NCBI GenBank assembly: GCA_050945235.1
Contig: JBMNSO010000002.1
Coordinates: forward strand, 1-36,724
DNA: 36,724 nucleotides
Source of the DNA: Mahellales bacterium
Lineage (GTDB): Bacteria; Bacillota; Clostridia; DUOD01
Reading direction: 5' to 3'
Under the pieces are notes generated by a model, which was not told the DNA's origin, made no database searches, and saw only the letters and a list, made by a program, of their open reading frames with translations. The translations under genes and the position numbers were made by a program. Shown piece after piece: positions 1,657-31,002 of the stretch. Each line of letters starts with the position of its first letter. Within the stretch, counting starts at the first letter, position 1.

Positions 1657-1687
1657 TATTTTGACACCCCCTAATAATTTCGGGATT

Positions 1688-2845: not shown

Positions 2846-2914
2846 TTTGTATATTACCCATACATTATCTATTGATCTAAATCAATTGACCTAAAGATAG
2901 GCTTTTACTGATTT

Positions 2915-6112: not shown

Positions 6113-6134
6113 AAAATCTCACTCCTTGTAGCAA

Positions 6135-7214
6135 TTAACTGGTTGCGTTGGAAACATAGTCCATAAATTTCTGGAATTCATTGCCGGTTTCCAAAGGATC
6201 GTACGGGTTTTCTGGATGAAATTGAAGGCCTATTATGGGATAATTGCGGTGGAAAAAACCTTCCACCGTTTGGTCGTTTATATTTCTATGGGTTATTATT
6301 ATGTCGCTGCCGATGTTATCACCCAGGGCATAGTTATGGTTTTGACTGGTTATACATATTCTGTTGTTTTTCAAGTCCTTTACCGGATGACCGGCACCGT
6401 GATGGCCGAATTTAAGTTTGTAGGTCCTGCCTCCTAGTGCAATGCCCAGTATCTGATACCCAAGGCATAAACCCAGTATGGGCTTGTATCCTATAAGCTC
6501 CTTGACTGTCATTATTACTTCCTTAAGCCCTGCAGGATCCCCGGGACCGTTGGACAGTAAAATACCGTCGGGATTTAGAGCCATTATTTCCCGGGAAGTG
6601 GTATTCCAGGGCATTATATATACTTCACACTCCATTTTTTTAAGTAAACAAAGGATACTTTCCTTTACACCCAGGTCTAAAAGTACAATTCTAGGTCCCT
6701 TACCCATAATGTGTTTTGGCTTTTCAGTGGATACCTGGGCTACCAGGTTATATTTATTGAGGGAAAACCTCTGAGCCTTTGCTGCCAGGGAGGGTACATC
6801 CTTGCAGGAAGTAGAGATTATTCCATATAGGCTCCCATGGTTTCGCAGGTGGTGGGTGAGCTGCCTCGTATCAACATCCATAATGCCGACTATATTATTC
6901 TTTTTAAAGTATTCCTGGGGCGTCATTGTACACCGCCAGTTGCTAGGGTATTCGCATAATTCCTTTACTATAAATCCCCGGGCCCATGGCTTGGCGGACT
7001 CTACGTCCTCTCCATTAAAACCGCAATTGCCTATCAGCGGATAGGTCATAGCAATCATTTGTCCGTTATAGGAAGGGTCTGTCAGTATTTCCTGGTAACC
7101 GGTCATGGAGGTGTTGAATACTACCTCTCCTAAGGCTTCTCCTTCTGCCCCAAAGGCTATACCTTCGAAGTATGTTCCGTCTTGTAAAACCAGTAATGAC
7201 TTCAAATATTTCAC
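6135..7214 (-). CDS. carA: Carbamoyl-phosphate synthase small (glutaminase) subunit
   Basis: 359 aa with a class-I glutamine amidotransferase motif (GLCLGYQIL ... FHPE). The GTG start overlaps the argD stop (GTGA). Confidence 0.95.
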   Translation of the reverse strand: MKYLKSLLVLQDGTYFEGIAFGAEGEALGEVVFNTSMTGYQEILTDPSYNGQMIAMTYPLIGNCGFNGEDVESAKPWARGFIVKELCEYPSNWRCTMTPQEYFKKNNIVGIMDVDTRQLTHHLRNHGSLYGIISTSCKDVPSLAAKAQRFSLNKYNLVAQVSTEKPKHIMGKGPRIVLLDLGVKESILCLLKKMECEVYIMPWNTTSREIMALNPDGILLSNGPGDPAGLKEVIMTVKELIGYKPILGLCLGYQILGIALGGRTYKLKFGHHGAGHPVKDLKNNRICITSQNHNYALGDNIGSDIIITHRNINDQTVEGFFHRNYPIIGLQFHPENPYDPLETGNEFQKFMDYVSNATS

Positions 7215-8419
7215 GCCTTTCCATATAGATCCATGAAAATGTCCTGTAGTTTTTCAACCAAAATATCAACATCGGATTTGGTTACTATCAACGGGGGTAC
7301 AAACCTTAAGGTATTATTACCGGCACAATTGATTAACAGTCCTTGCTCAAGGCACCTGTATACAATGTCCTTTCCGTCTATGGTGTTCTTTAACTGAAGG
7401 CCCAGCATCAGCCCCAGACCTCTGACATCGCAGATAAAATCAAACTGGTCTTTTAAATTCTGTAACCTGTCCTTTAAATATTGGCCGGTTTCTTGAACAT
7501 TATCCATAAATCCCGGCTTTAATATCGTTTCCAGAACGGTGCAGGCAGCGGTGCAGGCCAGCGGATTTCCACCGAAGGTGGAACCATGATCACCGGGTTT
7601 AAAGGCCGAGGCCACTTTTTCCTTGGCCACCAGGGCGCCGATGGGTACACCGCCCCCCAGACCCTTGGCCAGGGTAAATATATCCGGTTCAATATCAAAA
7701 TGCTGGTAGGCGAAGAGCTTACCTGTCCGGCCTATGCCTGTCTGTACCTCGTCAAATATCAGCAATATGCCTAGGTTATCACATAATTTTTTGACACCCT
7801 TGAGGTACCCGGTGTCCGCTACGCAGACCCCGCCTTCCCCTTGAATTACTTCTAACATTATGGCACAGGTATTATTTGATACTGCTTTTTCAAGAGCCGC
7901 CAGGTTGTTAAACTCCACATGCTTGAAACCTGGAGTTAAAGGCTTATATGGTAGTTGGTATTTTTGCTGACCGGTGGCTGCCAGGGTTGTCATTGTCCTT
8001 CCGTGGAATGAGTTTTGAAGGGTGATGATTTCATATTTATCCGTACCCATCTCCTTGAAGTATTTCCGTGCCAGCTTTATTGCTCCTTCATTGGCCTCGG
8101 CTCCGCTGTTGCAGAAGAATACCCTATTCCCGCAGCTGTTTTGGACTATTAGCCTTGCAGCCTCTGCCTGCTGCTCTATGTAATATAGGCTGGAGGTGTG
8201 TATCAGCCTTTCTACCTGTTCCTTTAAGACACCTGTCAGGGCTGGGTGATTATAACCCAGGCAATTGACGGCTATACCCGCCACGAAATCCAGATACTCG
8301 TTACCTTCGCTATCGTATAATCTTATACCCTCTCCCCTTTCAAAGGCTACCAGCAGCCTTTGACCGAAGGTATTGAAATAATATTTTTGATCCAAGTCTT
8401 GTATGGTCTTTATATCCAT
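7211..8419 (-). CDS. argD: Acetylornithine aminotransferase (class-III PLP aminotransferase)
   Basis: 402 aa with motifs FFCNSGAEANE, DEVQTGIGRTG and TLAKGLGGG (PLP lysine). GGGGGG ribosome-binding site before ATG 8419. Operon context with carAB-argF. Confidence 0.93.
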   Translation of the reverse strand: MDIKTIQDLDQKYYFNTFGQRLLVAFERGEGIRLYDSEGNEYLDFVAGIAVNCLGYNHPALTGVLKEQVERLIHTSSLYYIEQQAEAARLIVQNSCGNRVFFCNSGAEANEGAIKLARKYFKEMGTDKYEIITLQNSFHGRTMTTLAATGQQKYQLPYKPLTPGFKHVEFNNLAALEKAVSNNTCAIMLEVIQGEGGVCVADTGYLKGVKKLCDNLGILLIFDEVQTGIGRTGKLFAYQHFDIEPDIFTLAKGLGGGVPIGALVAKEKVASAFKPGDHGSTFGGNPLACTAACTVLETILKPGFMDNVQETGQYLKDRLQNLKDQFDFICDVRGLGLMLGLQLKNTIDGKDIVYRCLEQGLLINCAGNNTLRFVPPLIVTKSDVDILVEKLQDIFMDLYGKA

Positions 8420-8454
8420 TTAAAGGGTAGCCCCCCATCTATATTTTTTATAAT

Positions 8455-8472
8455 TATACATTAATATGTATA
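8455..8472. promoter_or_regulatory. Candidate ArgR operator (ARG-box-like 18-bp palindrome)
   Basis: tatacat-taat-atgtata is a perfect 7+7 inverted repeat with an AT core, 36-53 nt upstream of the argD ATG. It overlaps a minus-strand TATAAT. The layout (18 bp, T-N-T ... WWWW ... A-N-A) resembles the ARG box. Confidence 0.4.
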
Positions 8473-8595
8473 AAAATACAACAATTCCTTTATCGTTTTT
8501 TAAACTTACGGCTGTCGGTGGCTGAATTACTTATAATATTTAGGATGATTGTCTACAAGGACATTACAAAAATCACATAAATTGATTATTGTTTA

Positions 8596-8624
8596 TTGCA
8601 GTTTTTTCCTTGTAGATATAGAAT
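8596..8624 (+). promoter_or_regulatory. Candidate sigma-A promoter of the tsaE operon
   Basis: TTGCAG-17 nt-TAGAAT. The -10 lies within a 12-nt direct repeat, tatagaatgagt (8617-8628 and 8647-8658). Confidence 0.35.
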
Positions 8625-8712
8625 GAGTATAACAACTGCTTACTAGTATAGAATGAGTGATATAAGATATATTGGTTAAAATATACAGTAAGGATAAAAA
8701 AGGAGTGACAGG

Positions 8713-9186
8713 ATGGTTGAGATAACATCCACATCACCTGAGCAGACCGGTGCCATAGCCGCTTATATAGGTCAAATGCTGAGGAAAGGAGATATTCTGT
8801 GCCTGCAGGGCGACCTTGGTGCCGGCAAAACTGCCTTCACCCAGGGCTTGGCAAGGGGAATGGGAATAGAGGATTATGTGACCAGCCCTACCTTTACCAT
8901 TGTAAACGAATATCATGGTCCTACACCCCTTTACCATTTTGATGTATACAGGCTAACCCATGCCGATGAACTGTTTGATATCGGATATGAGGAATACTTC
9001 TATAGTGACGGTGTAGTGGTGGTTGAATGGCCGGAGAGGATTGTGGAACTGCTGCCTGAAGAAAAACTATGGATAAAGATAACCCATGGCAGTGGGGAAA
9101 ACATCAGGGTATTTCATATTAAAGGATGGGGCAAGAGATACGTAGAACTGGAGGAGGCTATAAAAAGTGTTAGTCCTGGCAATTGA
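8713..9186 (+). CDS. tsaE: tRNA t6A37 biosynthesis ATPase TsaE (YjeE)
   Basis: 157 aa with P-loop GDLGAGKT and SPTFTIVNEY. AAGGAG ribosome-binding site. First gene of the tsaE-tsaB-rimI-tsaD arrangement. Confidence 0.9.
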   Translation: MVEITSTSPEQTGAIAAYIGQMLRKGDILCLQGDLGAGKTAFTQGLARGMGIEDYVTSPTFTIVNEYHGPTPLYHFDVYRLTHADELFDIGYEEYFYSDGVVVVEWPERIVELLPEEKLWIKITHGSGENIRVFHIKGWGKRYVELEEAIKSVSPGN

Positions 9187-9892
9187 TACGTCATCCAATA
9201 CAGCATCGGCTGCCATAGCCGATGAGCAGAAGGTGATATGCGAGTATAACCTTAATCATAAAAAGACCCATTCCCAACGGCTGATGCCCATGGTGAATGA
9301 TATCATGAAGGATTGCGAGGTAAAGATTGAAGACATTGACTTGTTTGCCGTGGCCATGGGCCCCGGGTCCTTTACCGGGCTGAGGATAGGGGTAGCCACT
9401 GTAAAGGCTCTTGCCCACTGCATGTCAAAGCCTGTTATAGGAGTCTATACCTTAGATGGCCTGGCCTGCAACGGTGCGGGTTTTGACGGTTATATCTGCC
9501 CCATAATGGATGCCCGTCGGCAGCAGGTATATACCGGTATATATAGGTGGTCGGAGGATGGGCCACAGCTGGAGGGCGATTTTATGGCCCTGCCGGTTAA
9601 AGACCTTACCCGGCTCTTGAAGGACAAAGGGCAGAGGGTACTTATGGTGGGAGACGGTGTACCCGTTTATAAGGAGGTTATTATGGAAGAATTGGGTGAT
9701 GTAGTATTCTTCCCGCCGCCCAACCTAATGCTTCAAAGGGCATCATCCATAGCTTGGCTGGCTGTTAAAGGGTTTAACAGGGGGCAAACCCATGATGCCA
9801 TGACCCTGACGCCCTTTTATCTTAGAAAATCCCAGGCTGAGAGGGAACTAGAAAAAAAGTGTGCCTTAAGAGGGGATTGTTTTGGAGTATAG
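9167..9892 (+). CDS. tsaB: tRNA t6A37 biosynthesis protein TsaB (YeaZ)
   Basis: GTG start giving MLVLAIDTSS..., then GPGSFTGLRIG. Overlaps tsaE by 20 nt. GGAGGAGG ribosome-binding site upstream. Confidence 0.9.
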   Translation: MLVLAIDTSSNTASAAIADEQKVICEYNLNHKKTHSQRLMPMVNDIMKDCEVKIEDIDLFAVAMGPGSFTGLRIGVATVKALAHCMSKPVIGVYTLDGLACNGAGFDGYICPIMDARRQQVYTGIYRWSEDGPQLEGDFMALPVKDLTRLLKDKGQRVLMVGDGVPVYKEVIMEELGDVVFFPPPNLMLQRASSIAWLAVKGFNRGQTHDAMTLTPFYLRKSQAERELEKKCALRGDCFGV

Positions 9893-10337
9893 GGATATTG
9901 TGATTTCCGCCATGACATCGGAGGACATAGACCAGGTGCTGGACATTGAGAGGCTGTGCTTCAGCCTGCCATGGTCTGAAGAATCCTTTAGAATGGAAGT
10001 GGAGAAAAATCAATGCGCCAGGTATTTGGTAGCCCGAACCGGTAACCGGGTTATAGGTTATGTGGGTATGTGGGTAATCCTTGATGAGGGGCATATAACC
10101 AACCTTGCCGTTCATCCCGATTATAGGGGAAACAAGGTAGCCCTTAAACTGATGGAGAATCTTATAATCCTTGCAAGGAAAATGAGGATAGAAAAGCTGA
10201 CCCTGGAGGTCAGGAGCACCAATTTTATAGCCCAAAACCTGTATAAAAAGCTGGGGTTTTGTATTGCAGGGGTAAGGAAGGGATATTATGCCGATAACAA
10301 GGAGGATGCCTTAATAATGTGGAAAAAGGGCATATAA
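9882..10337 (+). CDS. rimI: Ribosomal-protein-alanine N-acetyltransferase (GNAT)
   Basis: 151 aa with ITNLAVHPDYRGNKVALKLM and NFIAQNLYKKLGF. Canonical position between tsaB and tsaD. Start is uncertain (TTG 9882, GTG 9900 or ATG 9912, all in frame). Confidence 0.8.
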   Translation: MEYRDIVISAMTSEDIDQVLDIERLCFSLPWSEESFRMEVEKNQCARYLVARTGNRVIGYVGMWVILDEGHITNLAVHPDYRGNKVALKLMENLIILARKMRIEKLTLEVRSTNFIAQNLYKKLGFCIAGVRKGYYADNKEDALIMWKKGI

Positions 10338-10368
10338 ATACATATGTTGAGAGGGGATGAAGGCATAA

Positions 10369-11283
10369 GTGAGAATTAAAGAAAGACTAAATATTAAGGA
10401 CCCCCAGGCCTTAACCGATAAATTAGGGGATTTTATAAAAAATACAATGGAAAGGTATAACCGTGAAGGCTGTATACTGGGAAACAGCGGGGGTATAGAC
10501 TCAGCACTGGTAGCCTTTTTGGCTGTAAGGGCCCTGGGCAAAGACAGGGTCGAGATGCTGTTCCTACCGGAGCGGGACAGCAGCGGCAAGAGCTATCATG
10601 ATGCCCTTGAAGTATCTGATGCCCTTGGCGTACCCATGAAGGAGATAAGCATAACACCGTTGCTTAAAAAGATTGGTGTATACAGGCTGGAACCTTCACC
10701 ATTATTTATACCCAGAAGCATACAGGAAAGGTATGTAGCCAATAAGCATAAAAAATATGACGATGAAAAAGGTACCACCTTTATAAAGACGCTGAAAGGC
10801 GGTGTGGGCAATCCCCAACTGCAAAGGGATATTGCGTATTACCGTATCAAACACCGCTTGAGGATGGCTATCCTTTATTATTATGGTGAAATGAAAAACT
10901 ATATGGTACTGGGCACAAGCAACAGGAGCGAAAAAATGACCGGACTTTTTGTTAAATATGGCGATGGTGCCTCAGACCTTGATCCAATAGCAGGTCTATA
11001 TAAAACTCAGGTGTTTGAGCTGGCTGAATTTCTCAATGTACCCCGATCCATTATAGAAAAGGCACCGACTCCCGATCTGGCTCCGGGATTGACCGATGAA
11101 CAGACCCTGAACTTAAGTTACGACAAACTTGACATTATACTGGCAGGACTGGATATGGGTATGGAAAAAGGGGATATAGCCCGGGAAGCGGGAGTAGAGA
11201 TATCGTCAATCGACTATGTTAAACAACTGACAGATGTGTCATGGCATATGCGAAACCTCCCCCTTGAACCTGACAATATATAA
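10369..11283 (+). CDS. nadE: NH3-dependent NAD+ synthetase-like PP-loop ATP pyrophosphatase
   Basis: 304 aa with PP-loop GNSGGIDSA, GTSNRSE and a C-terminal PTPDLAPGLTDEQTLNLSYDKLD segment typical of NadE. GTG start. Confidence 0.8.
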   Translation: MRIKERLNIKDPQALTDKLGDFIKNTMERYNREGCILGNSGGIDSALVAFLAVRALGKDRVEMLFLPERDSSGKSYHDALEVSDALGVPMKEISITPLLKKIGVYRLEPSPLFIPRSIQERYVANKHKKYDDEKGTTFIKTLKGGVGNPQLQRDIAYYRIKHRLRMAILYYYGEMKNYMVLGTSNRSEKMTGLFVKYGDGASDLDPIAGLYKTQVFELAEFLNVPRSIIEKAPTPDLAPGLTDEQTLNLSYDKLDIILAGLDMGMEKGDIAREAGVEISSIDYVKQLTDVSWHMRNLPLEPDNI

Positions 11284-21324: not shown

Positions 21325-23961
21325 TTGAATGTTGGAATAATAAGAACCATTTCTGAAAAGTGTGCCCAGTGCTATTCATGCGTGAGAAACTGTCCGGTAA
21401 AGGCGGTAAAGATCAATAACGGTCGTGCCCAGGTAATCCAGGAAAGGTGTATACATTGTGGCAACTGCGTCAAGATATGCTCAAGACAGGCTAAAGAGAT
21501 ATACGACGGAATAAATCCAACCTTGGAAATGATAAGCAAAGGCAGATGCATAGCGATCATTGCCCCCTCCTTTCCAGCAGTATACAAGGAAAACCACGAC
21601 AGGGTGGCAGCCGGGTTAAAGAAACTGGGTTTCAGCGAGGTATGGGAAGTTGCGGTAGGTGCAGAACTGGTAGCCCAGGCATATCAGCAATTGAACTTTA
21701 GTAACGGATGTTATATCAGCTCTGCCTGCCCAGCTGTAATTAACTTGGTACAGAAACACTATCCGAATCTTATATCCAACCTGGTGCCGGTGGTTTCCCC
21801 TGCCATTGCCACCGGTAGGCTCATTAGGCATCTATATGACGATCAGGATTTTAACATTGTCTTTATTGGACCCTGTATAGCTAAGAAAGGTGAAATCAGG
21901 GATCCTGAAGTATCAGGCGTAATAGACGAGGTATTAACCTTTGACGAACTGAATTCCTTGTTCCAAAGGCAGTCCATTGACCTGGGTTCATTGGAAAAGG
22001 TATCCTTTGACGGGTTGAATGCTTCCCTGGCATATCTTTTTCCCCTGTCCGGGGGTTTATTAAAAAACCTTAGCCAACAAAGTGATCTGCTCAACGATAA
22101 TTATATGGTGGTAGACGGGAGCAGCTCAATCAAAGAGATATTCAATAGCCTTAACGACTATAAAGAAAAGATTAATCTCATCGACTGCCTCTTTTGCTCC
22201 GGTTGTATAAATGGACCTTCTGGGGGTAGCGGTGGTAATATCCTGGCAAAGAAACAGGAAATAATATACTATATGAAGTCTATACCCATCGAAGAGCAAG
22301 CACGGGCCAAAAAGGAATTGCTAAGTATACAGCTGGATCTTAAGCGGAATTTTTGCTATAGTGGTCTACGCCTGCCTGCCCCAAGGGAAGAAGACATAAG
22401 AAAGGTTTTAACACAAATCGGGAAAAACACCGACGAGGATCTTTTAAACTGTGGAGCTTGTGGGTATTCCTCTTGCAGGGAAAAGGCCATAGCCGTGTGC
22501 CAGGGCATCGCTGAAAAGGAGATGTGCATGCCCTTTCTCTTGTCCCAGAAGAATTACCTGTTATCGGCACTGGAGGATGAACTGTCAAAGATAAAGGAAT
22601 TGAAGGAAGAGTTGGATATAATAATAGATTCTTCTTACGACGGCATTTGCTTAACCGACGGTAGTGGGGAGGTGCTAAGGACCAACAATGCCTTTGCTAA
22701 GATGCTGCAGTTAAAACCGGAGGACATTACGGGGTTATCCATAAGGGACTTGGAAAAGAACGGTATGATCCACCCTTCTGCTACCATGATGGTGTTGAAA
22801 GCCCGCAAACCCGTTACTTTTCTCCAAGGCTTAAAGTCTGGTAAGCAAGTATTGGCCACCGGTGTCCCTGTATTCGATGAAGCAGGAAATGTAAGCAAGG
22901 TTATAACCAATATAAGGGACTTTGAAGAATTACAAAGAATAAAACGGCGGTTGGATGAGGTGAATTATTCCAACAATGGAATAGAGGATGGAAGGGCGAA
23001 TAAAAAGGCTGAGGCAAAGATAATAGCCTTTAGCGACGTGTTTGGCGAGGTATTGGATTTAGCCAATAGAATAGCCAACGTGGATTCTACAGTATTGGTG
23101 CTGGGAGAATCCGGTGTGGGCAAGGAGGTCATAGTAAGGTATATCCATAGAATAAGCAACAGATCCGACAAACCCTTTGTTAAAATCAATTGTGGCGCTC
23201 TGCCGGAATCGTTAATAGAATCGGAACTTTTCGGGTACGATACCGGCGCCTTCACCGGTGCAAAAAAACAGGGTAAACCGGGATTGTTTGAACTGGCGGA
23301 CAAGGGCATATTATTTCTTGATGAGATAGGGGAACTTCCCCTATCCCAACAGGTGAAGCTGTTACAGGCCATACAGGAAAAAAGGATTGTACGGGTGGGG
23401 GGAACCAAACCCATACCAATAGATGTGAGGATAATAGTGGCTACCAACAGGGACTTGGCAAGGATGGTAAAAAACGGCGAGTTTAGGGCCGATCTTTATT
23501 ACAGGCTCAACGTTGTTCCCATAACCATTCCACCCTTAAGAAAGAGAAGGGATGATATTATTCCCTTGGCTCGCCATTTCTTAAAGGTTTATAACACCAA
23601 GTATTCTACCAGTAGAGAAATTTCCCAACAGGTCAAGGATAGATTCCTCGAATATAAATGGCCGGGCAATGTAAGGGAATTGGAAAATATAATGGAAAGG
23701 CTGGTAGTTACGGCTTCAAGCGATATTATCACCGAAGAAGACCTTCCCCCTGTATTAAAAACTCCTGTGGATACACAGACCGGGTCCGGGAAGGAAATCA
23801 CCCTCCTGCCCCTTAAGAAGGCACTGGAGGAAAGGGAAAAGGAACTGATACTCCAGGCAAGGCAGTTATACGATAGCACCTATAAGATAGCTGAAGTTCT
23901 TGAAGTTAACCAGTCCACCATCGTTAGAAAATTGCAGAAATACCGAAAGGAGGATAAATAA
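21325..23961 (+). CDS. Sigma-54-dependent transcriptional activator with an N-terminal sensory [FeFe]-hydrogenase-like domain and PAS
   Basis: CAQCYSCVRNCP and CIHCGNCVKIC (2x[4Fe-4S]). H-domain-like motifs SSACP, GPCIAKKGE and CSGCINGP. CGACGYSSC-x16-C. PAS (aa ~430-540). AAA+ module with GESGVGKE, GAFTGA and ESELFGY. C-terminal HTH YKIAEVLEVNQSTIVRKL. TTG start after GAGGGGGA. Confidence 0.9.
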   Translation: MNVGIIRTISEKCAQCYSCVRNCPVKAVKINNGRAQVIQERCIHCGNCVKICSRQAKEIYDGINPTLEMISKGRCIAIIAPSFPAVYKENHDRVAAGLKKLGFSEVWEVAVGAELVAQAYQQLNFSNGCYISSACPAVINLVQKHYPNLISNLVPVVSPAIATGRLIRHLYDDQDFNIVFIGPCIAKKGEIRDPEVSGVIDEVLTFDELNSLFQRQSIDLGSLEKVSFDGLNASLAYLFPLSGGLLKNLSQQSDLLNDNYMVVDGSSSIKEIFNSLNDYKEKINLIDCLFCSGCINGPSGGSGGNILAKKQEIIYYMKSIPIEEQARAKKELLSIQLDLKRNFCYSGLRLPAPREEDIRKVLTQIGKNTDEDLLNCGACGYSSCREKAIAVCQGIAEKEMCMPFLLSQKNYLLSALEDELSKIKELKEELDIIIDSSYDGICLTDGSGEVLRTNNAFAKMLQLKPEDITGLSIRDLEKNGMIHPSATMMVLKARKPVTFLQGLKSGKQVLATGVPVFDEAGNVSKVITNIRDFEELQRIKRRLDEVNYSNNGIEDGRANKKAEAKIIAFSDVFGEVLDLANRIANVDSTVLVLGESGVGKEVIVRYIHRISNRSDKPFVKINCGALPESLIESELFGYDTGAFTGAKKQGKPGLFELADKGILFLDEIGELPLSQQVKLLQAIQEKRIVRVGGTKPIPIDVRIIVATNRDLARMVKNGEFRADLYYRLNVVPITIPPLRKRRDDIIPLARHFLKVYNTKYSTSREISQQVKDRFLEYKWPGNVRELENIMERLVVTASSDIITEEDLPPVLKTPVDTQTGSGKEITLLPLKKALEEREKELILQARQLYDSTYKIAEVLEVNQSTIVRKLQKYRKEDK

Positions 23962-24001
23962 TAAACCAAAGGGGACTATAATGCCCGGGTGCATGGAAGG
24001 A

Positions 24002-24019
24002 TAATGCAATGTTGCATTA
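24002..24019. promoter_or_regulatory. Candidate enhancer (UAS 1) for the sigma-54 activator
   Basis: Perfect palindrome taatgcaa-tg-ttgcatta, about 126 nt upstream of the -12 element. Confidence 0.55.
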
Positions 24020-24056
24020 CTTCAAGATGCGGATTATTACTCTTTTCCAGTGCTGT

Positions 24057-24074
24057 TAATGCAATAGTGCATCA
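24057..24074. promoter_or_regulatory. Candidate enhancer (UAS 2)
   Basis: taatgcaatagtgcatca has the same left half-site and a degenerate right half. Its centre is 55 nt from the UAS 1 centre (about 5 helical turns) and about 71 nt from the -12 element. Confidence 0.5.
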
Positions 24075-24093
24075 ATAAACAGTAATATTCTGT

Positions 24094-24121
24094 AAAACAA
24101 GGCTAATAGCCTTGTTTTTTA
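24094..24121 (+). terminator. Intrinsic terminator of the regulator gene
   Basis: acaaggct-aat-agccttgt stem-loop followed by tttttt. It ends one base before the -24 element. Confidence 0.75.
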
Positions 24122-24122
24122 T

Positions 24123-24138
24123 TGGCATGAAAGTTGCA
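24123..24138 (+). promoter_or_regulatory. Sigma-54 (-24/-12) promoter of the hydrogenase operon
   Basis: TGGCAT-gaaag-TTGCA matches TGGCAC-N5-TTGCW with correct GG/GC spacing. It lies 60 nt upstream of ATG 24198. Confidence 0.8.
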
Positions 24139-24197
24139 TCTATATAATAGTAGAGTCAAATCAAAAATTGGCAAATGAAAGGAAGGGGAGTATTTCG

Positions 24198-24707
24198 ATG
24201 AGTGTGACCTTTCAGCAGGGAGAACAGGAAGAAATCAGGCTGGTGGAAGAAATAATATCTGCATATGAAGACAAGCCGGGATCTTTGATACCGGTACTCC
24301 ATGAGACTCAAAAGGTACTGGGCTTTTTACCCCGGTGGGCCCAGGAAAGGATTGCCGAAAGGCTTAATATCAATTCCAGTGAAGTAAACAGTGTGGTAAG
24401 TTTTTACTCATTATTTTCCGAAAAGCCCAAGGGCAAGTACTGTATAGGGGTTTGTAAGGGTACTGCCTGTTATGTAAGGGGCTCGGAGGAAATAATCAAA
24501 AAACTGGAAAAGGAACTGGGGATTGAAGTGGGCGATACAACAGATGACGGTAAGTATTCTCTGGAGGTACTAAGATGCCTTGGGGCATGCGGGCTGGGGC
24601 CTGTTGTTACGGTAAACGAGAGGGTGTATACCAGGATGAAACCCGAAAAGGTGCGGGATATGCTACAGGATATCGATGATATGGAAAAAAGGGGTGAGGA
24701 GTCGTGA
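24198..24707 (+). CDS. NuoE/HndA/HydC-like [2Fe-2S] hydrogenase subunit
   Basis: CKGTAC ... CLGAC (NuoE-type Cx4C...Cx3C). GGAAGGGGAG ribosome-binding site 7 nt before ATG 24198; the TTG at 24168 has no ribosome-binding site. Confidence 0.88.
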   Translation: MSVTFQQGEQEEIRLVEEIISAYEDKPGSLIPVLHETQKVLGFLPRWAQERIAERLNINSSEVNSVVSFYSLFSEKPKGKYCIGVCKGTACYVRGSEEIIKKLEKELGIEVGDTTDDGKYSLEVLRCLGACGLGPVVTVNERVYTRMKPEKVRDMLQDIDDMEKRGEES

Positions 24708-25072
24708 CAGGTATGGATGTTTACAATCGGCTGCGGGAAAACCTAATGAAGGACCGGGAAAGTGAACAAAGGGAATGGGTTATCAATGTACAGCTGGGGA
24801 TGTGCTGTTCAAGCGGTAGGGGGTTCGAACTCCTCAATACCATTCGAAAAACCATTGAAGAGAATTATCTTGATAATATAACGGTACGCAGTACCGGTTG
24901 TATGGGTATGTGCAGTTATGAACCGATTATGGAGGTAGCAGGTCCAAGGCAGCAGTCGGTTACCTATTGCATGGTTACGCCTCAAAGGGCTAGGTTAATA
25001 GTTTTAAACCATATTCTAAAGGGTATTGTAATTAAACCATGGACACTGGAAGGAAAGGGCGTGGGGTTATAA
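24704..25072 (+). CDS. Small thioredoxin-like [2Fe-2S] ferredoxin subunit (HndB-like)
   Basis: 122 aa with CCSSG ... GCMGMCSYEP. Overlaps both neighbours. Same position as hndB in the hndABCD order. Confidence 0.7.
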   Translation: MTGMDVYNRLRENLMKDRESEQREWVINVQLGMCCSSGRGFELLNTIRKTIEENYLDNITVRSTGCMGMCSYEPIMEVAGPRQQSVTYCMVTPQRARLIVLNHILKGIVIKPWTLEGKGVGL

Positions 25073-28000
25073 TGGGCTTTATCAGAAATCATGTTCTAGT
25101 TTGTGGCGGAGGCGGTTGTCATTCATCAGGCACTTCAGATCTGGTTGCCCGCCTTAATGAGGAAATCGCAAAAAAGGGTTTGCAAGATGAGATAAAGGTG
25201 GTTGTTACCGGTTGTATGGGCCTGTGCGCCTTAGGCCCGGTTATGATCATTTATCCCGAGGGAGTATTCTATAAAAAGGTAGCTGTTGAAGACATACCCG
25301 AGATAGTGGACCAACATTTATACTTGGGTATAACCGTAGAGAGGTTGTTATACGAGGATCCCGAGGATGGAAGGAAGCTCCCCACCATCAGGGATATACC
25401 CTTTTTCGCAAAGCAGAAAAAAATAGTTCTGAGAAACGTGGGACTTATAGATCCCCATAGGATAGAAGAATATATTGCCTTTGACGGGTATTTTGCCCTG
25501 GCAAAGGTATTGTCTTCCATGAAGCCGGAGGATGTCATCCAAGAGATGATAAAATCAGGTCTTAGAGGCAGGGGGGGTGCAGGTTTTCCCACAGGCCTTA
25601 AGTGGAAGTTTACTGCCCAGGCCAAGGGTGATGTGAAATACGTAACCTGTAATGCCGATGAAGGTGACCCCGGAGCCTATATGGACAGGAGTATAATAGA
25701 AGGCGATCCCCATACATTGATAGAGGGTATGGCCATTGCCGGCTATGCCATCGGCTCCAACCAGGGATATGTTTATATTAGGGCGGAATATCCCATGGCT
25801 GTGGAGAACTTATCGAGGGCTATTGAGCAGGCAAAGAGCTATGGCCTATTAGGTGAAAACATAATGGGCTCGGGTTTTGATTTTGATCTTGAGATAAGGG
25901 TAGGTGCCGGTGCCTTTGTCTGCGGTGAGGAAACTGCCCTGTTGGCTTCTATAGAGGGTAGGAGGGGTGAACCTCGGCCCAAACCGCCCTTCCCGGCTAA
26001 CCAAGGTCTGTGGGATAAGCCCACACTGTTAAGTAATGTGGAGACGTATGCTAATGTTGCTCCCATTATACTGAAGGGTGCCGAATGGTTTAAGAGCATT
26101 GGAACGGACAAGAGCCCTGGTACTAAGGTATTTGCCTTGGCCGGAAATGTAAGAAATACCGGGCTGGTGGAAGTGCCCATGGGTACACCCTTAGGTGATA
26201 TTATATATGACATCGGAGGGGGCATAATAGACGGGAAGCCCTTTAAAGCTGCCCAAACCGGGGGGCCGTCGGGGGGCTGTATTCCAAAAAACGAATTAAA
26301 TGTGCCGGTAGATTATGAGTCTTTGACCGAGCTGGGAACCATTATGGGTTCCGGTGGCCTTATTATAATGGATGAGGATACTTGTATGGTGGACCTGGCA
26401 AAATTCTTTTTGGATTTTGTTCAGGAGGAATCTTGCGGTAAATGTACGCCCTGTCGTGTAGGTACCAGGCGCATGAAGGAGATACTGGAGAGGATTACCC
26501 GGGGCGAAGGCCGGGAGGGTGATATTGAGACCCTGGAAAAACTGGGTAACGAGATAATAGACACTGCCCTTTGTGGGTTAGGTCAAACAGCCCCCAAGCC
26601 TGTCCTCAGCACCATAAAATATTTCAGGGACGAATATGAGGCCCATATCAAGGACAAAAAATGCCCATCTTCCCTGTGCGCTTCATTATTTACTTCACCC
26701 TGTGCCAATGCATGTCCGGCGGGGGTAGATGTACCCAGATATATAGAGTACATTCAAAGGGGATTGTATTATAAAGCGGTGGAGGTCATTAAAGAGAAAA
26801 ATCCTTTGCCGGCTATCTGCGGCCGAATATGCCACAGCCCCTGTGAGGATAAGTGTAGGCGTGCACAGGTGGATGAACCCATGGCCGTTAGGTATTTAAA
26901 GAGGTTTGCTTCCGATTATGAACAGAAAAACTGGGAGAATATATATTTCAATAACCTCCCGTCCAAGAGCGAAGTGGTTAAGGACAAAAAGGTTGCCATC
27001 GTAGGTGCCGGCCCGGCAGGGCTGACTGCGGCTTATTATCTGGCCCGATGGGGCTATCCTGTTACAATATTTGAACAATACGAGGTATTGGGCGGTATGC
27101 TGGCCCTGACTATTCCGGAGTACCGTTTGCCCATGGATGTACTGCAAAAGGAGATTGAGCATATTCTGGCATATGGAGTCGATGTCGTGACAGGAGTAAA
27201 GCTGGGAAGGGATATCCAGCTGAAAGAGCTTAGGGAGCAATACGATGCCGTATTTCTTGCCTTAGGTGCCCATAGATCATTGAACCTCGGTATCCCAGGG
27301 GAGGATGCGGAGGGTGTAATAGATGCACTGACCTTTTTAAAGGCTGTACGTTTGAACCAACCGGTTTCCCTGGGTAAAAGGGTAGCGGTGGTTGGTGGCG
27401 GTAATTCCGGTATTGATGCAGCACGAGTTGCCTTAAGAAAGGGAGCGGAGGATGTATCGATCCTGTACAGGAGGAAGAAGTACGACATGCCGGCTCAGCA
27501 CCATGAGATCGAGGAAGCTACCAAGGAAGGAATAGCTATCCATGAACTTATTACCCCGGTCAGGGTATTGACTGACGATAATAATAAGGTAATAGGTCTG
27601 GAATGCGTAAAAATGGAAATGGGCAAGTTCGACAGCTCAGGCAGGAGAAGGCCTCAGCCCATACCCAATTCTAATTTCATAGTGGATGTGGATACAGTAA
27701 TAGTTGCCATAGGCATGGCCTGTGACGTAAAAGGTATAGACATGGAATCCATTAGAAGGGACTATAAGGATATTCTTCAGGTGGACCATAAAACCATGAT
27801 GAGTGACCTCGACGGTGTATTTGCCGGGGGTGACTGTGTAAACGGGGCGGATTATGTAATAAACGCCATTGCAGATGGAAGGAGAACAGCCTTTTCCATT
27901 GACAGTTTTTTAGGCGGGCGCCAAAGGGAACTGGAAAAGGAACAGAAAATTGAACGGAAGGTCTTCGGTGAAATTATAGAAAAGCCAATGGCCAGGGTCA

Positions 28001-28119
28001 AAACCGAACTGTTGCTGGTGGATAAACGAACAAGAAACTTTTGCGAAGTAGAACTGTGTATGGGCGAAGAAGAGTGCAAAAAAGAGGCCTCCAGATGTCT
28101 GCGCTGTGATGTTAAATAA
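25072..28119 (+). CDS. NuoF/HndC/HydB-like flavoprotein subunit fused to a C-terminal GltD/NfnB-like NAD(P)H:FAD oxidoreductase module
   Basis: N-terminal CGGGGC...GCMGLC ([2Fe-2S]). GRGGAGFPTGLKWKF (FMN/NADH site). ESCGKCTPCR ([4Fe-4S]). From about 26660: CANACPAG, NPLPAICGRICHSPCEDKCRR, VAIVGAGPAGLTAAYYL (FAD) and VAVVGGGNSGIDAAR (NAD(P)H). ATG 25072 overlaps the preceding stop (TAATG). Confidence 0.88.
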   Translation: MGFIRNHVLVCGGGGCHSSGTSDLVARLNEEIAKKGLQDEIKVVVTGCMGLCALGPVMIIYPEGVFYKKVAVEDIPEIVDQHLYLGITVERLLYEDPEDGRKLPTIRDIPFFAKQKKIVLRNVGLIDPHRIEEYIAFDGYFALAKVLSSMKPEDVIQEMIKSGLRGRGGAGFPTGLKWKFTAQAKGDVKYVTCNADEGDPGAYMDRSIIEGDPHTLIEGMAIAGYAIGSNQGYVYIRAEYPMAVENLSRAIEQAKSYGLLGENIMGSGFDFDLEIRVGAGAFVCGEETALLASIEGRRGEPRPKPPFPANQGLWDKPTLLSNVETYANVAPIILKGAEWFKSIGTDKSPGTKVFALAGNVRNTGLVEVPMGTPLGDIIYDIGGGIIDGKPFKAAQTGGPSGGCIPKNELNVPVDYESLTELGTIMGSGGLIIMDEDTCMVDLAKFFLDFVQEESCGKCTPCRVGTRRMKEILERITRGEGREGDIETLEKLGNEIIDTALCGLGQTAPKPVLSTIKYFRDEYEAHIKDKKCPSSLCASLFTSPCANACPAGVDVPRYIEYIQRGLYYKAVEVIKEKNPLPAICGRICHSPCEDKCRRAQVDEPMAVRYLKRFASDYEQKNWENIYFNNLPSKSEVVKDKKVAIVGAGPAGLTAAYYLARWGYPVTIFEQYEVLGGMLALTIPEYRLPMDVLQKEIEHILAYGVDVVTGVKLGRDIQLKELREQYDAVFLALGAHRSLNLGIPGEDAEGVIDALTFLKAVRLNQPVSLGKRVAVVGGGNSGIDAARVALRKGAEDVSILYRRKKYDMPAQHHEIEEATKEGIAIHELITPVRVLTDDNNKVIGLECVKMEMGKFDSSGRRRPQPIPNSNFIVDVDTVIVAIGMACDVKGIDMESIRRDYKDILQVDHKTMMSDLDGVFAGGDCVNGADYVINAIADGRRTAFSIDSFLGGRQRELEKEQKIERKVFGEIIEKPMARVKTELLLVDKRTRNFCEVELCMGEEECKKEASRCLRCDVK

Positions 28120-28139
28120 CAGGGGTAGGAGGGGAGATA

Positions 28140-29861
28140 ATGAGTATGATAGAGTTAACCATTGATAACAAAAGGATCAAAATCAATAAAGATAGTACTA
28201 TTTTGGAAGCCGCCAGGCATGCAGGCATAACTATACCGACCCTTTGCTATTTGGAGGGAGTGAACCAGATAGGCAGCTGTCGGGTATGCGTTGTTGAAGT
28301 TAAGGGTGCCAAGAACCTGGTACCCTCCTGTATAACAAAGGTGCAGGATGGTATGGAGGTGGTTACCAATTCCGAAAGGGTGCGCAGCGCCCGCAGGACT
28401 ATGGTGAATTTATTACTGTCCAACCACCCTGACGACTGCCTGGCCTGCGGCAAGAACCAGAAGTGTGAGTTACAGAAACTGGCACACCAGCTTAATATAA
28501 GGGAAAACCCCTTTGAAGGCCAACCGTCGAAGGCTGTGTATGATGACAGTAGCCCGGCCATAATAAGGGATTCATCGAAATGTATTTTGTGTAGGCGCTG
28601 TCTGACGGTTTGTAACAGCATACAGAAAGTGGGTGTTATAGCACCCCTGGGTAGAGGTTATGACACAGTTATATCCCCTGCCTATGGCCAGCCTATAATG
28701 GAGGCCACATGTGTACAATGCGGACAGTGCACCACGATTTGCCCTACCGGTGCGTTAATGGAGAGATCCTATATAGAGGATGTGTGGGGTGCCTTGGCCG
28801 ATCCGTCAAAACATGTGGTTGTTCAGATAGCTCCAGCAATAAGGGCATCCATAGGCGAATGTTTCGGCTATGAACCGGGGACCGTGCTAACCGGTAAGCT
28901 GGTTAGCGCAGTAAAAGCCTTAGGCTTTGACAAGGTATTCGATACCAACTTCACTGCGGACCTTACCATAATGGAAGAGGGTTCAGAACTACTCCATAGG
29001 ATAAAAAGCGGCGGGAAGCTTCCCATGATAACTTCATGCAGCCCTGGGTGGATAAACTTTGTGGAGCAGTTCTACGGCGATATTTTAGGGCATATATCTA
29101 CATGCAAATCCCCACAGCAGATGTTCGGTCCAGTAATAAAGACCTATTACGCCCAGAAGATGGGAATAGACCCTAATAATATTTACAGTGTTTCGGTAAT
29201 GCCCTGTACCGCTAAAAAGTATGAGGCCCGGAGGGAGGAAATGCGGTCCAGCGGTTTTTGGGATGTGGATGCGGTTTTAACCACCCGGGAACTGGCTGCC
29301 ATGATCAATGAAGCGGGCATTCAGATGGATAAAATAGAGGAGCAGCACTTTGATATACCCTTCGGAGAGGGTAGCGGTGCCGGTGCAATATTCGGCAATA
29401 CCGGCGGTGTGATGGAGGCCGCCCTGAGGACCGTTTATAAGCTGGTGACCGGCAATGAACTTGAAAACATTGAACTGACCGATGTCCGTGGCCTTGAGGG
29501 CGTTAAGGAAGCCACAATAAACCTGGAAGGTAAGGATGTATCGGTGGCAGTGGTCCATGGCTTGGGAAACATTAGGGAGATATTGGATCAGATAAGGGAG
29601 GGTAAAAGTCCCTATACCTTCATTGAGGTTATGTGCTGTCCCGGCGGATGTATAGGTGGTGGAGGTCAACCCATACCCACTAATGATGAAATAAGGAAAA
29701 AGAGGATAGAGGGTTTGTATAAAGCGGACCGTAACCTGGAATTTAGGCGTTCCCATGAGAATCCGTATGTACAAATGCTTTATGAAGAATTCTTGGGTGC
29801 ACCTTTAGGTGAAATGTCCCATAAATTACTCCATACCCATTATAAAGACAGACGAATATAA
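28140..29861 (+). CDS. hydA: [FeFe]-hydrogenase catalytic subunit (M3 architecture, HndD/HydA-like)
   Basis: N-terminal 2Fe-2S, HPDDCLACGKNQKC, CILCRRCLTVC and CVQCGQCTTICP. H-cluster motifs ITSCSPGW (L1 variant), MPCTAKKYE (L2) and EVMCCPGGCIGGGGQP (L3). AGGAGGGGAG ribosome-binding site. Confidence 0.93.
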   Translation: MSMIELTIDNKRIKINKDSTILEAARHAGITIPTLCYLEGVNQIGSCRVCVVEVKGAKNLVPSCITKVQDGMEVVTNSERVRSARRTMVNLLLSNHPDDCLACGKNQKCELQKLAHQLNIRENPFEGQPSKAVYDDSSPAIIRDSSKCILCRRCLTVCNSIQKVGVIAPLGRGYDTVISPAYGQPIMEATCVQCGQCTTICPTGALMERSYIEDVWGALADPSKHVVVQIAPAIRASIGECFGYEPGTVLTGKLVSAVKALGFDKVFDTNFTADLTIMEEGSELLHRIKSGGKLPMITSCSPGWINFVEQFYGDILGHISTCKSPQQMFGPVIKTYYAQKMGIDPNNIYSVSVMPCTAKKYEARREEMRSSGFWDVDAVLTTRELAAMINEAGIQMDKIEEQHFDIPFGEGSGAGAIFGNTGGVMEAALRTVYKLVTGNELENIELTDVRGLEGVKEATINLEGKDVSVAVVHGLGNIREILDQIREGKSPYTFIEVMCCPGGCIGGGGQPIPTNDEIRKKRIEGLYKADRNLEFRRSHENPYVQMLYEEFLGAPLGEMSHKLLHTHYKDRRI

Positions 29862-29865
29862 CAAT

Positions 29866-29908
29866 AAAACAAAGGACGGCCTGTACTTCAAGGCCGTCCT
29901 TTGTTTTT
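29866..29908. terminator. Bidirectional intrinsic terminator between hydA and folT
   Basis: 16-nt arms, aaaacaaaggacggcc and ggccgtcctttgtttt, with a T-run on the plus strand and an A-run that reads as a T-run on the minus strand. Confidence 0.85.
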
Positions 29909-30448
29909 CTATCTATGCTTGGGAACAATTTTATATAACATTTTTGTTAGCATACTAATTATCATAACATAAACTGGAATGAGTACAAGCCGTGTGATTA
30001 TCCTGGGGGGTAGGAATACCAGGAAGGATTTATCGAAGTACAGGGTCAGCCAGTAGGTGTTTAAGAATATGTTGGCAATTAAATCTGTTATGGCTATTAC
30101 TCCTAGTAAAGAAAGCCATGTCCATTCTTCCCTTTGCCTCAAGATAGCAAATAATCCGGGTATCATTCCGGTAAGCATGGCCGATACGGTAAAACCGGGG
30201 AAATAGGCCCCGCCCATGGGATTGATTAAGTAACCGATGATATCTGCCATAAAACCGGTAGCACCGCCGAATATAGGACCCAATAGCAAACCGCTGAATA
30301 TAATCGGTATTTCACCAAAACTTAGGCGCAGGGCCAGGGCACCGCCTATGGGTACCGTTGTACCTAAAAACCTGGTTAGTACTATGCTGGTAGCGGTAAG
30401 CAATGCGGCATAGGCTATTCTCCTGCTTTTATTTATATCATTCAACAA
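29909..30448 (-). CDS. folT: Folate-family ECF transporter S component
   Basis: Multi-TM protein (AYAALLTATSIVLTRF..., SFGEIPIIFSGLLLGP). AAGGAGG lies 8 nt before TTG 30448. Preceded by a THF riboswitch. Confidence 0.8.
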   Translation of the reverse strand: MLNDINKSRRIAYAALLTATSIVLTRFLGTTVPIGGALALRLSFGEIPIIFSGLLLGPIFGGATGFMADIIGYLINPMGGAYFPGFTVSAMLTGMIPGLFAILRQREEWTWLSLLGVIAITDLIANIFLNTYWLTLYFDKSFLVFLPPRIITRLVLIPVYVMIISMLTKMLYKIVPKHR

Positions 30449-30530
30449 TAAAAGCACCTCCTTTCTCTTTGAATGGCAAAGATACCACATCAAAGAGATT
30501 GCCGGTACTTTTAATCATTCTTTGACATGG

Positions 30531-30623
30531 GCAGCGGACGCAGTATTGTACCGCAGGCCATAGGCCTTTCGTTTAAGGGCAACTTCCCATCCCTTAACAC
30601 TTAACGCACAATACCTACTCTGC
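30531..30623 (-). promoter_or_regulatory. THF (tetrahydrofolate) riboswitch
   Basis: The minus strand reads GCAGAGUAGGUAUUGUGCGUUAAGUGUUAAGGGAUGGGAAGUUGCCCUUAAACGAAAGGCCUAUGGCCUGCGGUACAAUACUGCGUCCGCUGC. This aligns block for block with the Eubacterium siraeum THF aptamer as I recall it (AGAGUAG..GCGUUAAGUGU..GGGAUG..ACGAA..GCGGU..UCCGCU). Confidence 0.9.
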
Positions 30624-30645
30624 TCATTCAATATCAATTACAAAA

Positions 30646-30925: not shown

Positions 30926-31002
30926 GCTGATGTAGCTCAGTAGGTAGAGCACTTCCTTGGTAAGGAAGAGGTTCACGGGTTCGATTCCCGTCATCAGCTC
31001 CA
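30926..31002 (+). tRNA. tRNA-Thr (anticodon GGU) with encoded CCA
   Basis: Hand-folded cloverleaf: acceptor GCTGATG/CATCAGC, D arm GCTC-AGTAGGTA-GAGC, anticodon arm CTTCC-TTGGTAA-GGAAG, T arm ACGGG-TTCGATT-CCCGT. The variable region appears to be 6 nt. Confidence 0.85.

Follow-up and report, generated by a model that had tools for sequence, protein, structure and literature searches.

The 36,724-nt contig JBMNSO010000002.1 of a Mahellales bacterium (hereafter the window; the entire 36.7-kb contig was analysed and its 29 open reading frames (ORFs) were scanned) carries the gene of an 878-aa regulator in which a sensor module of the [FeFe]-hydrogenase type is fused to a PAS domain, a sigma-54 interaction AAA+ domain and a helix-turn-helix (HTH) DNA-binding domain. 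A 236-nt spacer separates this gene from an operon encoding an Hnd-type [FeFe]-hydrogenase, and contains palindromes and a sigma-54 promoter. We propose that the regulator is a one-component switch, in which a group C sensor, the PAS domain with its neighbouring helices, the AAA+ domain and the HTH would together place the operon under H2-responsive control. Taken as a whole chain, including the H2 step, we regard this proposal as probable, if by a modest measure.

Architecture and sensor module of the regulator

The regulator gene starts at a TTG codon, with the ribosome-binding site GAGGGGGA located 7 nt upstream. Pfam matches confirmed what a first-pass annotation had read from the sequence, that is, a single 878-aa ORF fusing a 2x[4Fe-4S] domain, a hydrogenase H-domain, a PAS domain, an AAA+ domain with the GAFTGA motif and an HTH (Table 1). 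Among the hidden Markov model profiles named in that annotation, Fe_hyd_lg_C, PAS and Sigma54_activat were found, whereas the HTH matched HTH_50. The annotation had made its hydrogenase reading depend on a proper alignment of the N-terminal part with H-domains, and this alignment was obtained: the full Fe_hyd_lg_C profile was matched and the cluster cysteines C135, C184, C291 and C294 were kept, inside the motifs L1 (SSA-C135-P), L2 (G182-P-C184-IAKKGE) and L3 (C291-SG-C294), with an APS motif at aa 80-82. Absent from the earlier description is the C-terminal [4Fe-4S] site formed by C376, C379, C384 and C401. According to an AlphaFold2 model (mean predicted local distance difference test score of 79), long helices at aa 401-436 and 533-550 link the PAS domain to the modules on either side.

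The C-terminal half has the features of a bacterial enhancer-binding protein (bEBP): an AAA+ domain with Walker A (GESGVGKE) and Walker B (LFLDEIGE), GAFTGA at aa 641-646, an HTH, and upstream activator sites (UAS) near a -24/-12 promoter. In an alignment of 30 members of the regulator family (A1), G641, F643, G645 and A646 were invariant, while A642 and T644 were conserved in at least 90% of the sequences. Foldseek matched the AAA+ domain to those of NtrC1, ZraR and FleQ (template-modelling score ∼0.9, 44-50% identity); the top 50 matches of the full-length model were all AAA+ domains, so that the H-domain gained nothing from this search. Inside HTH_50, residues Q863, S864, T865, V867, R868 and K869 were invariant in A1, and a recognition region that is largely invariant fits a UAS common to the family.

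We then compared the sensor module with its relatives. Residues 1-420, used as the query of a full HMMER scan against 1.84 billion cluster representatives, gave 964 matches at E ≤ 1e-30. The best 150 of these 964 (representatives of clusters at 50% identity) had E values of 1e-68 to 1e-108, and ten exemplars of the tail classes among them all displayed the HydS architecture in Pfam, with the same order of modules. By contrast, solved group A catalytic enzymes matched the module at only ∼1e-21, and a PDB sequence search returned no solved HydS closer to the module than catalytic HydA. In A1, C135, C184, C291, C294, K187, E190, the APS motif and the four cysteines of the C-terminal site were invariant, and the cysteines of the ferredoxin-like domain were invariant or nearly so. 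In an alignment of 149 sensor-module relatives (A2), C184, C291 and C294 were invariant, C135 was conserved in at least 90%, and the C-terminal Fe-S motif was matched by a regular expression in 133 of the 149. Across both alignments, K187, the APS motif and the bridging L3 Cys were invariant or nearly invariant. A134 and G182 occupy the positions of C299 and M353 of CpI; A1 shows A, P, S, N or T at the first of them and Gly without exception at the second. Sensory [FeFe]-hydrogenases such as TmHydS carry Ala in ∼43% of cases at the C299 position and Gly in ∼51% at the M353 position (PMC10055695), and an extra C-terminal [4Fe-4S] site is a unifying feature of groups C and D (PMC13104023). On the strength of search scores, exemplar architecture and hallmark residues, we assign the N-terminal 420 residues to the group C (HydS, M2f) sensor modules. 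The module is predicted to bind two F-clusters and a C-terminal 4Fe-4S cluster, and to form an H-cluster pocket whose proton relay is disabled.

Predicted wiring of the regulator to the hydrogenase operon

The spacer between regulator and operon was scanned, together with the rest of the window, for the palindrome TAATGC-N6-GCATTA (at most two mismatches) and for the promoter pattern TGGCAY-N5-TTGCW. Two palindromes and a TGGCAT-N5-TTGCA promoter had been placed about 160 nt downstream of the regulator by the first-pass annotation; all were recovered, the promoter beginning 162 nt after the stop codon and ending 60 nt from the ATG at 24198, and a third, weaker palindrome was added. The three palindromes sit 49-144 bp upstream of the promoter, and two or all three of them are likely binding sites of the regulator. 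They are the only matches in the window, a total which equals chance level (mean of 2.7 per window), so that the evidence rests on their clustering within 96 bp. A hairpin followed by a T-run, lying between the UAS and the promoter, is terminator-like and would end the regulator transcript; such elements, read by eye, recur in at least six of the seven related spacers described below. A weak sigma-70-like match overlaps the -24/-12 site.

The same arrangement was found in seven relatives of the regulator (L081-L087, 44-58% identity) from Lucifera butyrica, a Wukongibacter, Iocasia (L086), a metagenome-assembled genome of Thermoanaerobacteraceae (L085) and other Clostridia. All seven regulator genes immediately precede a NuoE/(HndB)/NuoF/HydA operon on the same strand, and each spacer contains one to three copies of TAATGC-N6-GCATTA. 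A -24/-12 promoter is present in the eight spacers, that of the window included, and begins 54-158 nt before the first gene in the relatives. Over the eight loci, 20 palindromes fall in 2.9 kb of spacers versus 7 in 192 kb of flanks, which corresponds to a ∼190-fold density. Of those seven, two are located just inside the 3′ end of regulator genes and three precede a second HydABC operon of Iocasia, which also has TGGCACAGCTGATGCA upstream. At a further locus (L089) the regulator and a different hydrogenase cluster are encoded on opposite strands and point towards each other; a perfect TAATGCACCATTGCATTA stands upstream of that cluster together with TGGCATGAAATTTGCA, on the correct strand. Overall, synteny, promoters, palindrome density and the sites at L086 and L089 bear out the earlier suggestion that the sensor is wired to the neighbouring hydrogenase genes, and make sigma-54-dependent control of the adjacent operon by the regulator very likely.

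In L085, the segment directly upstream of the sigma-54 fusion and its NuoF-GltD hydrogenase (770-9732) is a further cluster, of the classical kind, with a rex-like gene, DRTGG/HATPase proteins, a 449-aa PAS-less HydS, a PHP protein and NuoE/kinase-like/NuoF/HydA. Two hydrogenase systems thus coexist in this genome, and either one has a putative [FeFe] sensor of its own.

Candidate signal and alternative explanations

In bEBPs with N-terminal sensor domains, such as NorR, DmpR/XylR and NtrC1, the sensor represses assembly of the AAA+ domain. By analogy with these proteins, the sensor module of the regulator probably holds its AAA+ domain inactive. Turnover of H2 at a slow H-cluster without a proton relay would change the redox or conformational state of the module, and the PAS domain and helical linkers would pass this change on. 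Once released, the AAA+ domains could form a ring on the palindromes and remodel the sigma-54 closed complex at 24123-24138, with ATP driving open-complex formation. As a consequence, hydrogenase synthesis would track H2 availability.

To what signal the module responds can be approached through the genes that accompany it. Hydrogenase genes adjoin the fusion in 13 of the 15 fusion loci examined, and they belong to two unrelated classes, [FeFe] and [NiFe]. Five fusions of 735-752 aa (L025, L033, L088, L089 and L091) lack PAS and carry HTH_8 or HTH_50. They also lie beside hydrogenase genes, which are preceded by sigma-54 promoters in L033, L088 and L089; the HydS module, and not PAS, is thus the common sensor. 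The most telling locus is L033 (Peptococcaceae bacterium CEB3, LDXJ01000062.1; 10007-18535), where two or three TGTCTAA-N3-TTAGACA palindromes and the promoter TGGTATGCTTTTTGCA stand downstream of a 736-aa PAS-less HydS-sigma-54-HTH_8 fusion and lead into genes for the small and large subunits of a [NiFe] hydrogenase, cytochrome b and HypD. Here a [NiFe] uptake hydrogenase seems to be governed by a sensor of the [FeFe] type. HTH type and UAS change together, HTH_50 going with TAATGC-N6-GCATTA and the HTH_8 of L033 with TGTCTAA-N3-TTAGACA. H2 is the common denominator of targets from two unrelated hydrogenase classes and is therefore favoured over a general redox signal; we put H2 at the H-cluster as the signal only slightly above even. 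The sign of the response is not readable from sequence. The simpler assumption is that H2 activates: activators of the sigma-54 class can only switch genes on, and an uptake-type enzyme is among the targets.

The fifth PAS-less locus, L091, is flanked on both sides of its regulator (7621-8001 and 10253-11260) by many short direct and inverted repeats (GAATCGGGGGACGGTTCC..., GGGGAATGTCCCCAA) resembling a repeated intergenic element. No UAS of the hydrogenase type was recognised in these repeat-filled flanks.

Several observations weigh against H2-responsive control as proposed. Neither rpoN nor hydEFG is present among the 29 scanned ORFs, although the conserved -24/-12 elements imply that sigma-54 is present. 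In L034 and L090 the DNA retrieved around the fusion contains no hydrogenase, and in L025 what follows the nearby sigma-54 promoter is a small unscanned ORF and next to it purH (AICARFT/IMPCHase), with no hydrogenase. The sensory role of group C is still called ‘putative’ in reviews (PMC8924675), and the C-terminal cluster of the group D enzyme TamHydS was reported to stay unreduced under 1 atm H2 (PMC13104023), a finding that speaks against a simple redox relay by way of this cluster. Insertion of the H-cluster, reactivity with H2, DNA binding and control of the ATPase are all steps that we infer for the regulator. The sigma-54 fusions did not form one clade by neighbour-joining (eight of them, including the window protein, lay together and the others among kinase fusions); this tree, which has no support values, gives only a hint of repeated domain swapping to sigma-54 outputs through several independent fusions. 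Finally, we found no described regulon or biochemical study of such a fusion in the literature searched, subscription-only papers lying outside that search.

The principal competing explanation is that the module contains [4Fe-4S] clusters only, without the [2Fe] subcluster, and works as a redox or O2 sensor, reading the ferredoxin/NAD(P)H pool or damage to its clusters by O2 and tuning the hydrogenase to dispose of or recover reductant. We consider it possible but unlikely. Up to four cubane sites are conserved in A1, and OrpR is a sigma-54 activator with Fe-S cluster-based redox sensing (PMC8359166). A cubane-only module would also suit a contig without maturase genes. Some Firmicutes with hydrogenase-like genes, among them Desulfitobacterium hafniense DCB-2, have been reported without maturases (PMC9888536), and the TamHydS data weaken a relay from H2 to the C-terminal cluster (PMC13104023). 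However, residues that matter only to the [2Fe] pocket (the bridging L3 Cys, K187 and the APS motif) are kept in A1 and A2, and TmHydS, with the same substitutions, binds a functional H-cluster (PMC10055695). A catalytic HydA lies next door in nearly every locus, from which we infer that maturation machinery must exist there. Regulated hydrogenases of two unrelated classes fit an H2-specific signal, whereas a general redox signal predicts a wider regulon.

It is improbable that PAS is the real sensor, for a small ligand or cofactor, and that the hydrogenase-like module is an accessory domain for electron input or stability. PAS domains do bind many ligands, and the sensory assignment of HydS in the literature rests largely on the presence of PAS (PMC8924675, PMC10055695); yet the PAS-less fusions stand beside hydrogenase genes as well, three of them with sigma-54 promoters, and the HydS module is joined without PAS to histidine kinase, GGDEF or methyl-accepting chemotaxis protein (MCP) outputs. 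Least probable is an incidental adjacency, with the regulator controlling other genes and the operon driven by Rex, a sigma-70 promoter or similar: Rex-type regulators control many HydABC operons (PMC10084766), rex-like genes occur near hydrogenase genes in L085 and L086, and there is the weak sigma-70-like match, but synteny, promoter and UAS are kept in eight of eight loci, no further copy of the UAS occurs in the window, and in L086 and L089 this UAS stands at other hydrogenase promoters too.

Family, known systems and the regulated operon

Rather than a singleton, the fusion is a well-populated family. PF02906 and PF00158 were both present in 120 of 120 homologue clusters among the matches listed, covering 92-100% of the query, and any names given to these homologues are limited to ‘sigma 54-interacting transcriptional regulator’ and ‘PAS domain S-box protein’. 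A pattern scan of genome contigs, one pattern of which was the AAA+ motif, returned the full fusion in 3 of 80 loci and was dominated by generic PAS-sigma-54 activators. Carriers of the fusion that can be cultivated include Lucifera butyrica, Caloranaerobacter azorensis, and the Iocasia and Wukongibacter strains with the complete genomes CP046640.1 and CP138200.1, respectively. When the tails of the 149 nearest module representatives were clustered and exemplars checked with Pfam, ∼70 had PAS only (the classical stand-alone HydS of ∼570 aa), ∼44 were histidine kinase fusions, 15-16 were sigma-54 AAA+/HTH fusions, 4 had GGDEF (with or without HD-GYP), 4 had an MCP signalling domain and ∼12 were unclassified or truncated. 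GGDEF or MCP fusions of the HydS module were seen in L052 (10007-12391, Desulforadius tongensis), P0121, P0201 and P0151; they suggest that H2-linked cyclic di-GMP signalling and chemotaxis may exist as single polypeptides.

The HydDB classification divides group C into C1 (kinase-linked), C2 (chemotactic) and C3 (phosphatase-linked) and has no sigma-54 class (PMC5037454). The 29 scanned window ORFs contain no HisKA/HATPase_c, MCPsignal or SpoIIE domain, the outputs of C1 to C3. The first-pass annotation had group C described as signalling through separate kinases, MCPs or phosphatases; HydDB agrees with this, but direct kinase, MCP and GGDEF fusions also exist. The architecture itself is not new. 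Nie et al. (2019) listed Fer4, Fe_hyd_lg_C and FeS among the regulatory domains of enhancer-binding proteins (EBPs), and their supplement tabulates two fusions, Thermincola potens TherJR_2992 and Carboxydocella thermautotrophica CFE_2753, with no regulon or function; hydrogenase operons do not figure in any of the 39 regulons that they reconstructed (PMC6615313). Our search of the literature on sensory, HydS or FeFe hydrogenases with sigma-54 or EBPs, outside of which subscription-only literature lies, gave no account of the fusion beyond those tables, and like the first-pass annotation it met no characterised member of the class. The fusion is thus known already, in databases and one supplementary table, while the group C assignment, the DNA site, the promoter, the conserved hydrogenase regulon and the [NiFe] cross-control seem to be without an earlier description. 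That HydS-sigma-54 fusions add a fourth class of output, made up of one-component transcription factors that respond to H2 through a slow H-cluster gating AAA+ assembly on a DNA site, and whose sensor has also been recruited for [NiFe] uptake hydrogenases, is a generalisation for which we find the balance even.

Known systems offer several points of comparison. In the [NiFe] HoxBC-HoxJ-HoxA system of Cupriavidus necator, as also in HupUV-HupT-HupR, a slow hydrogenase senses H2 and controls an NtrC-family activator at sigma-54 hydrogenase promoters. That system uses an unrelated [NiFe] centre, three proteins and a phosphorelay, whereas one [FeFe]-type polypeptide would suffice here; by this analogy, the regulator would be the single-polypeptide [FeFe] counterpart of the cascade. 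Another bEBP, NorR, senses NO through non-haem iron. NorR and OrpR (PMC8359166) are like the regulator one-component sigma-54 activators whose N-terminal metallo-sensor gates the AAA+ domain, but their sensors are GAF or PAS domains with a simple metal site, in contrast to a complete hydrogenase module with up to five clusters. Group C HydS proteins (M2f; Thermotoga maritima TmHydS and Ruminococcus albus HydS) share with the regulator the order 2x[4Fe-4S], H-domain, Cx2Cx4Cx16C cluster and PAS, the changes of C299 to Ala and M353 to Gly, and a position beside a multimeric HydABC-type operon; proteins of the TmHydS type end after PAS, at ∼570 aa, and are thought to signal via separate proteins, whereas the window protein continues into the sigma-54 AAA+ domain and the HTH. 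The EBPs tabulated by Nie et al. have the same sensor module fused to a GAFTGA AAA+ domain and an HTH. They lack PAS and carry HTH_8, like L033 and L088, while the window protein has PAS and HTH_50; no motif, regulon or function was assigned to them, and they are absent from the 39 reconstructed EBP groups.

The label ‘sensory’ has been attached to groups C and D of the [FeFe]-hydrogenases since about 2009-2014. In reviews and recent work by spectroscopy the sensory role is nevertheless still described as putative and the signalling path as unknown (PMC8924675, PMC13104023, PMC10055695), partly because the kinase, phosphatase or MCP partners are separate proteins without known targets. In the fusion family a single polypeptide would cover the whole path, and a DNA site and promoter are predicted for it, which makes the family a simple system for testing H2 sensing. 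If the generalisation to a fourth output class is true, the family would provide the first simple in-vitro read-out (ATPase activity, or transcription from a 200-bp template) for H2 sensing by group C, as well as a compact genetic H2 biosensor. The comparative data further suggest that anaerobic Firmicutes may often place hydrogenase synthesis under H2-dependent sigma-54 control and that a [NiFe] enzyme may be governed by an [FeFe]-type sensor.

The regulated operon (24198-29861) had been called Hnd-type. Its order of genes fits that of the electron-bifurcating Hnd (Solidesulfovibrio fructosivorans) and HydABC (7q4v, 8a6t) enzymes, hndA-B-C-D, but the HndC homologue has an extra C-terminal GltD/NfnB-like module. 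The ATG of the hndA-like gene is preceded by AAAGGAAGGGGAG, while the mechanical ORF begins at TTG 24168. HndB-like homologues occupy the same position in L081-L083 and L085, come first in the operon of L084 and form the N-terminal part of a fused NuoF gene in L086. The hndC-like gene has an alternative start, ATG 25072, that overlaps the hndB stop. Its product comprises 2Fe-2S_thioredx (aa 16-92) and, up to aa 536, Complex1_51K (E 5e-46), SLBB and NADH_4Fe-4S (E 1e-35); beyond this, Fer4_20 (aa 545-631) and the FAD/NAD(P)H-binding Pyr_redox_2 (aa 650-947) replace the 2x[4Fe-4S] domain in which the NuoF-like subunit of Hnd/HydABC usually ends. NuoF-GltD occurs as a single protein of 1014-1037 aa in L083 (13928-17041), L085 (13932-16976), L086 (13645-16740) and L087 (13401-16505), and is also found in L091 (2822-5851); the other HydB of L085 (597 aa) ends in a canonical Fer4. 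In the Stn transhydrogenase the GltD module is on a NuoG-like subunit (PMC7483475), whereas here it is on the NuoF-like one. These features suggest that the NuoF-GltD hydrogenase may be an NADP(H)-linked or transhydrogenase-like variant of HydABC; no characterised NuoF-GltD hydrogenase was found. Its cofactor specificity and catalytic direction bear on the predicted sign of regulation.

As in the catalytic subunits of Hnd/HydABC enzymes, HydA has an N-terminal 2Fe-2S domain, accessory 4Fe-4S clusters and the H-cluster motifs L1 (TSCSPGW), L2 (MPCTAKKYE) and L3 (MCCPGGCIGGGGQP). The closest solved chains were 8a6t_A, ‘Electron bifurcating hydrogenase subunit HydA1’ (E 2e-198), and 7q4v_A, ‘Iron hydrogenase HydA1’ (E 3e-192), to which it was ∼50% identical in the aligned regions printed. 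We take 8a6t to be the enzyme of Thermoanaerobacter kivui and 7q4v the active enzyme of Acetobacterium woodii. The L1 motif TSCSPGW (window 29031-29051), which differs from the prototypical TSCCPxW, is common to chain 7q4v_A and was also seen in HydA of L014, L018, L019, L025, L028, L030, L032, L043, L044 and L081-L087 (HydA was unrecovered in L082). Its Ser presumably falls at the position of the cluster ligand Cys300 in CpI numbering. A literature search on the TSCSP motif yielded nothing relevant. Owing to this motif, HydA was considered as an H-cluster-less subunit of the Stn type; this was rejected, since L2 and L3 are intact, 7q4v_A has the same motif and the GltD of Stn is on a NuoG-like subunit without an H-domain.

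Table 1. Features of the regulator, the spacer and the hydrogenase operon (positions in the window)
Feature	Position	Strand	Evidence and remarks
Regulator gene, 878 aa	21325..23961	+	ORF with Pfam/NCBIfam domains; HydS-like module, PAS, sigma-54 AAA+, HTH_50
2x[4Fe-4S] ferredoxin-like domain, aa 8-55	21346..21489	+	Fer4_10/Fer4_9/Fer4_7 (Pfam); CxxCxxCxxxCP and CxxCxxCxxxC
[FeFe]-hydrogenase H-domain, aa 75-298	21547..22218	+	Fe_hyd_lg_C, E 1.6e-46, profile positions 3-245 of 245
C-terminal [4Fe-4S] site, aa 374-403	22444..22533	+	PF04060, E 2.8e-7; C376-x2-C379-x4-C384-x16-C401
PAS domain, aa 429-536	22609..22932	+	PAS_9, PAS, PAS_4 (Pfam)
Sigma-54 interaction AAA+ domain plus lid, aa 567-818	23023..23778	+	PF00158, E 5e-69 (aa 567-733); AAA_lid_14, E 4e-25 (aa 739-818)
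HTH_50 DNA-binding domain, aa 830-873	23812..23943	+	PF18024, E 1.7e-7; recognition region NQSTIVRKL
Weak candidate upstream activator site, TAATGCCCGGGTGCATGG	23979..23996	.	2 mismatches
Candidate upstream activator site 1, TAATGCAATGTTGCATTA	24002..24019	.	Perfect 18-bp palindrome; centre ∼113 bp upstream of promoter first base 24123
Candidate upstream activator site 2, TAATGCAATAGTGCATCA	24057..24074	.	1 mismatch
Terminator-like hairpin (24094-24118) with T-run	24094..24122	+	RNA fold -12.9 kcal/mol, z -3.4
Sigma-54 promoter, TGGCATgaaagTTGCA, TGGCAT-N5-TTGCA	24123..24138	+	-24 GG/-12 GC; sole exact TGGCAY-N5-TTGCW match in the window
hndA/hydC-like gene, NuoE-type 2Fe-2S thioredoxin-like	24198..24707	+	PF01257, E 4e-51; HoxE/NuoE NCBIfam matches
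hndB-like gene, small protein of 122 aa	24704..25072	+	Start overlaps hndA stop; weak 2Fe-2S_thioredx, E 0.002, below Pfam cutoff
hndC/hydB-like gene with GltD/NfnB-like module, 1026 aa	25039..28119	+	Pfam/NCBIfam
hndD/hydA catalytic [FeFe]-hydrogenase gene, 573 aa	28140..29861	+	NCBIfam NF040763 ‘NADH-dependent [FeFe] hydrogenase, group A6’, 912 bits vs cutoff 765
Strong bidirectional terminator hairpin, 17-bp stem	29866..29907	.	Ends the operon and the convergent energy-coupling factor (ECF) transporter gene

Beyond the operon, the gene for the S component of the ECF transporter (29909-30493, minus strand) is preceded by a tetrahydrofolate (THF) riboswitch (30530-30624, minus strand; Rfam RF01831, 86 bits), which makes this component probably a folate transporter of the FolT type. 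Between the ECF gene and an ORF for a small membrane protein, an AT-rich stretch (GC 0.35) contains a tRNA-Thr (GGT) at 30926-31002 on the plus strand.

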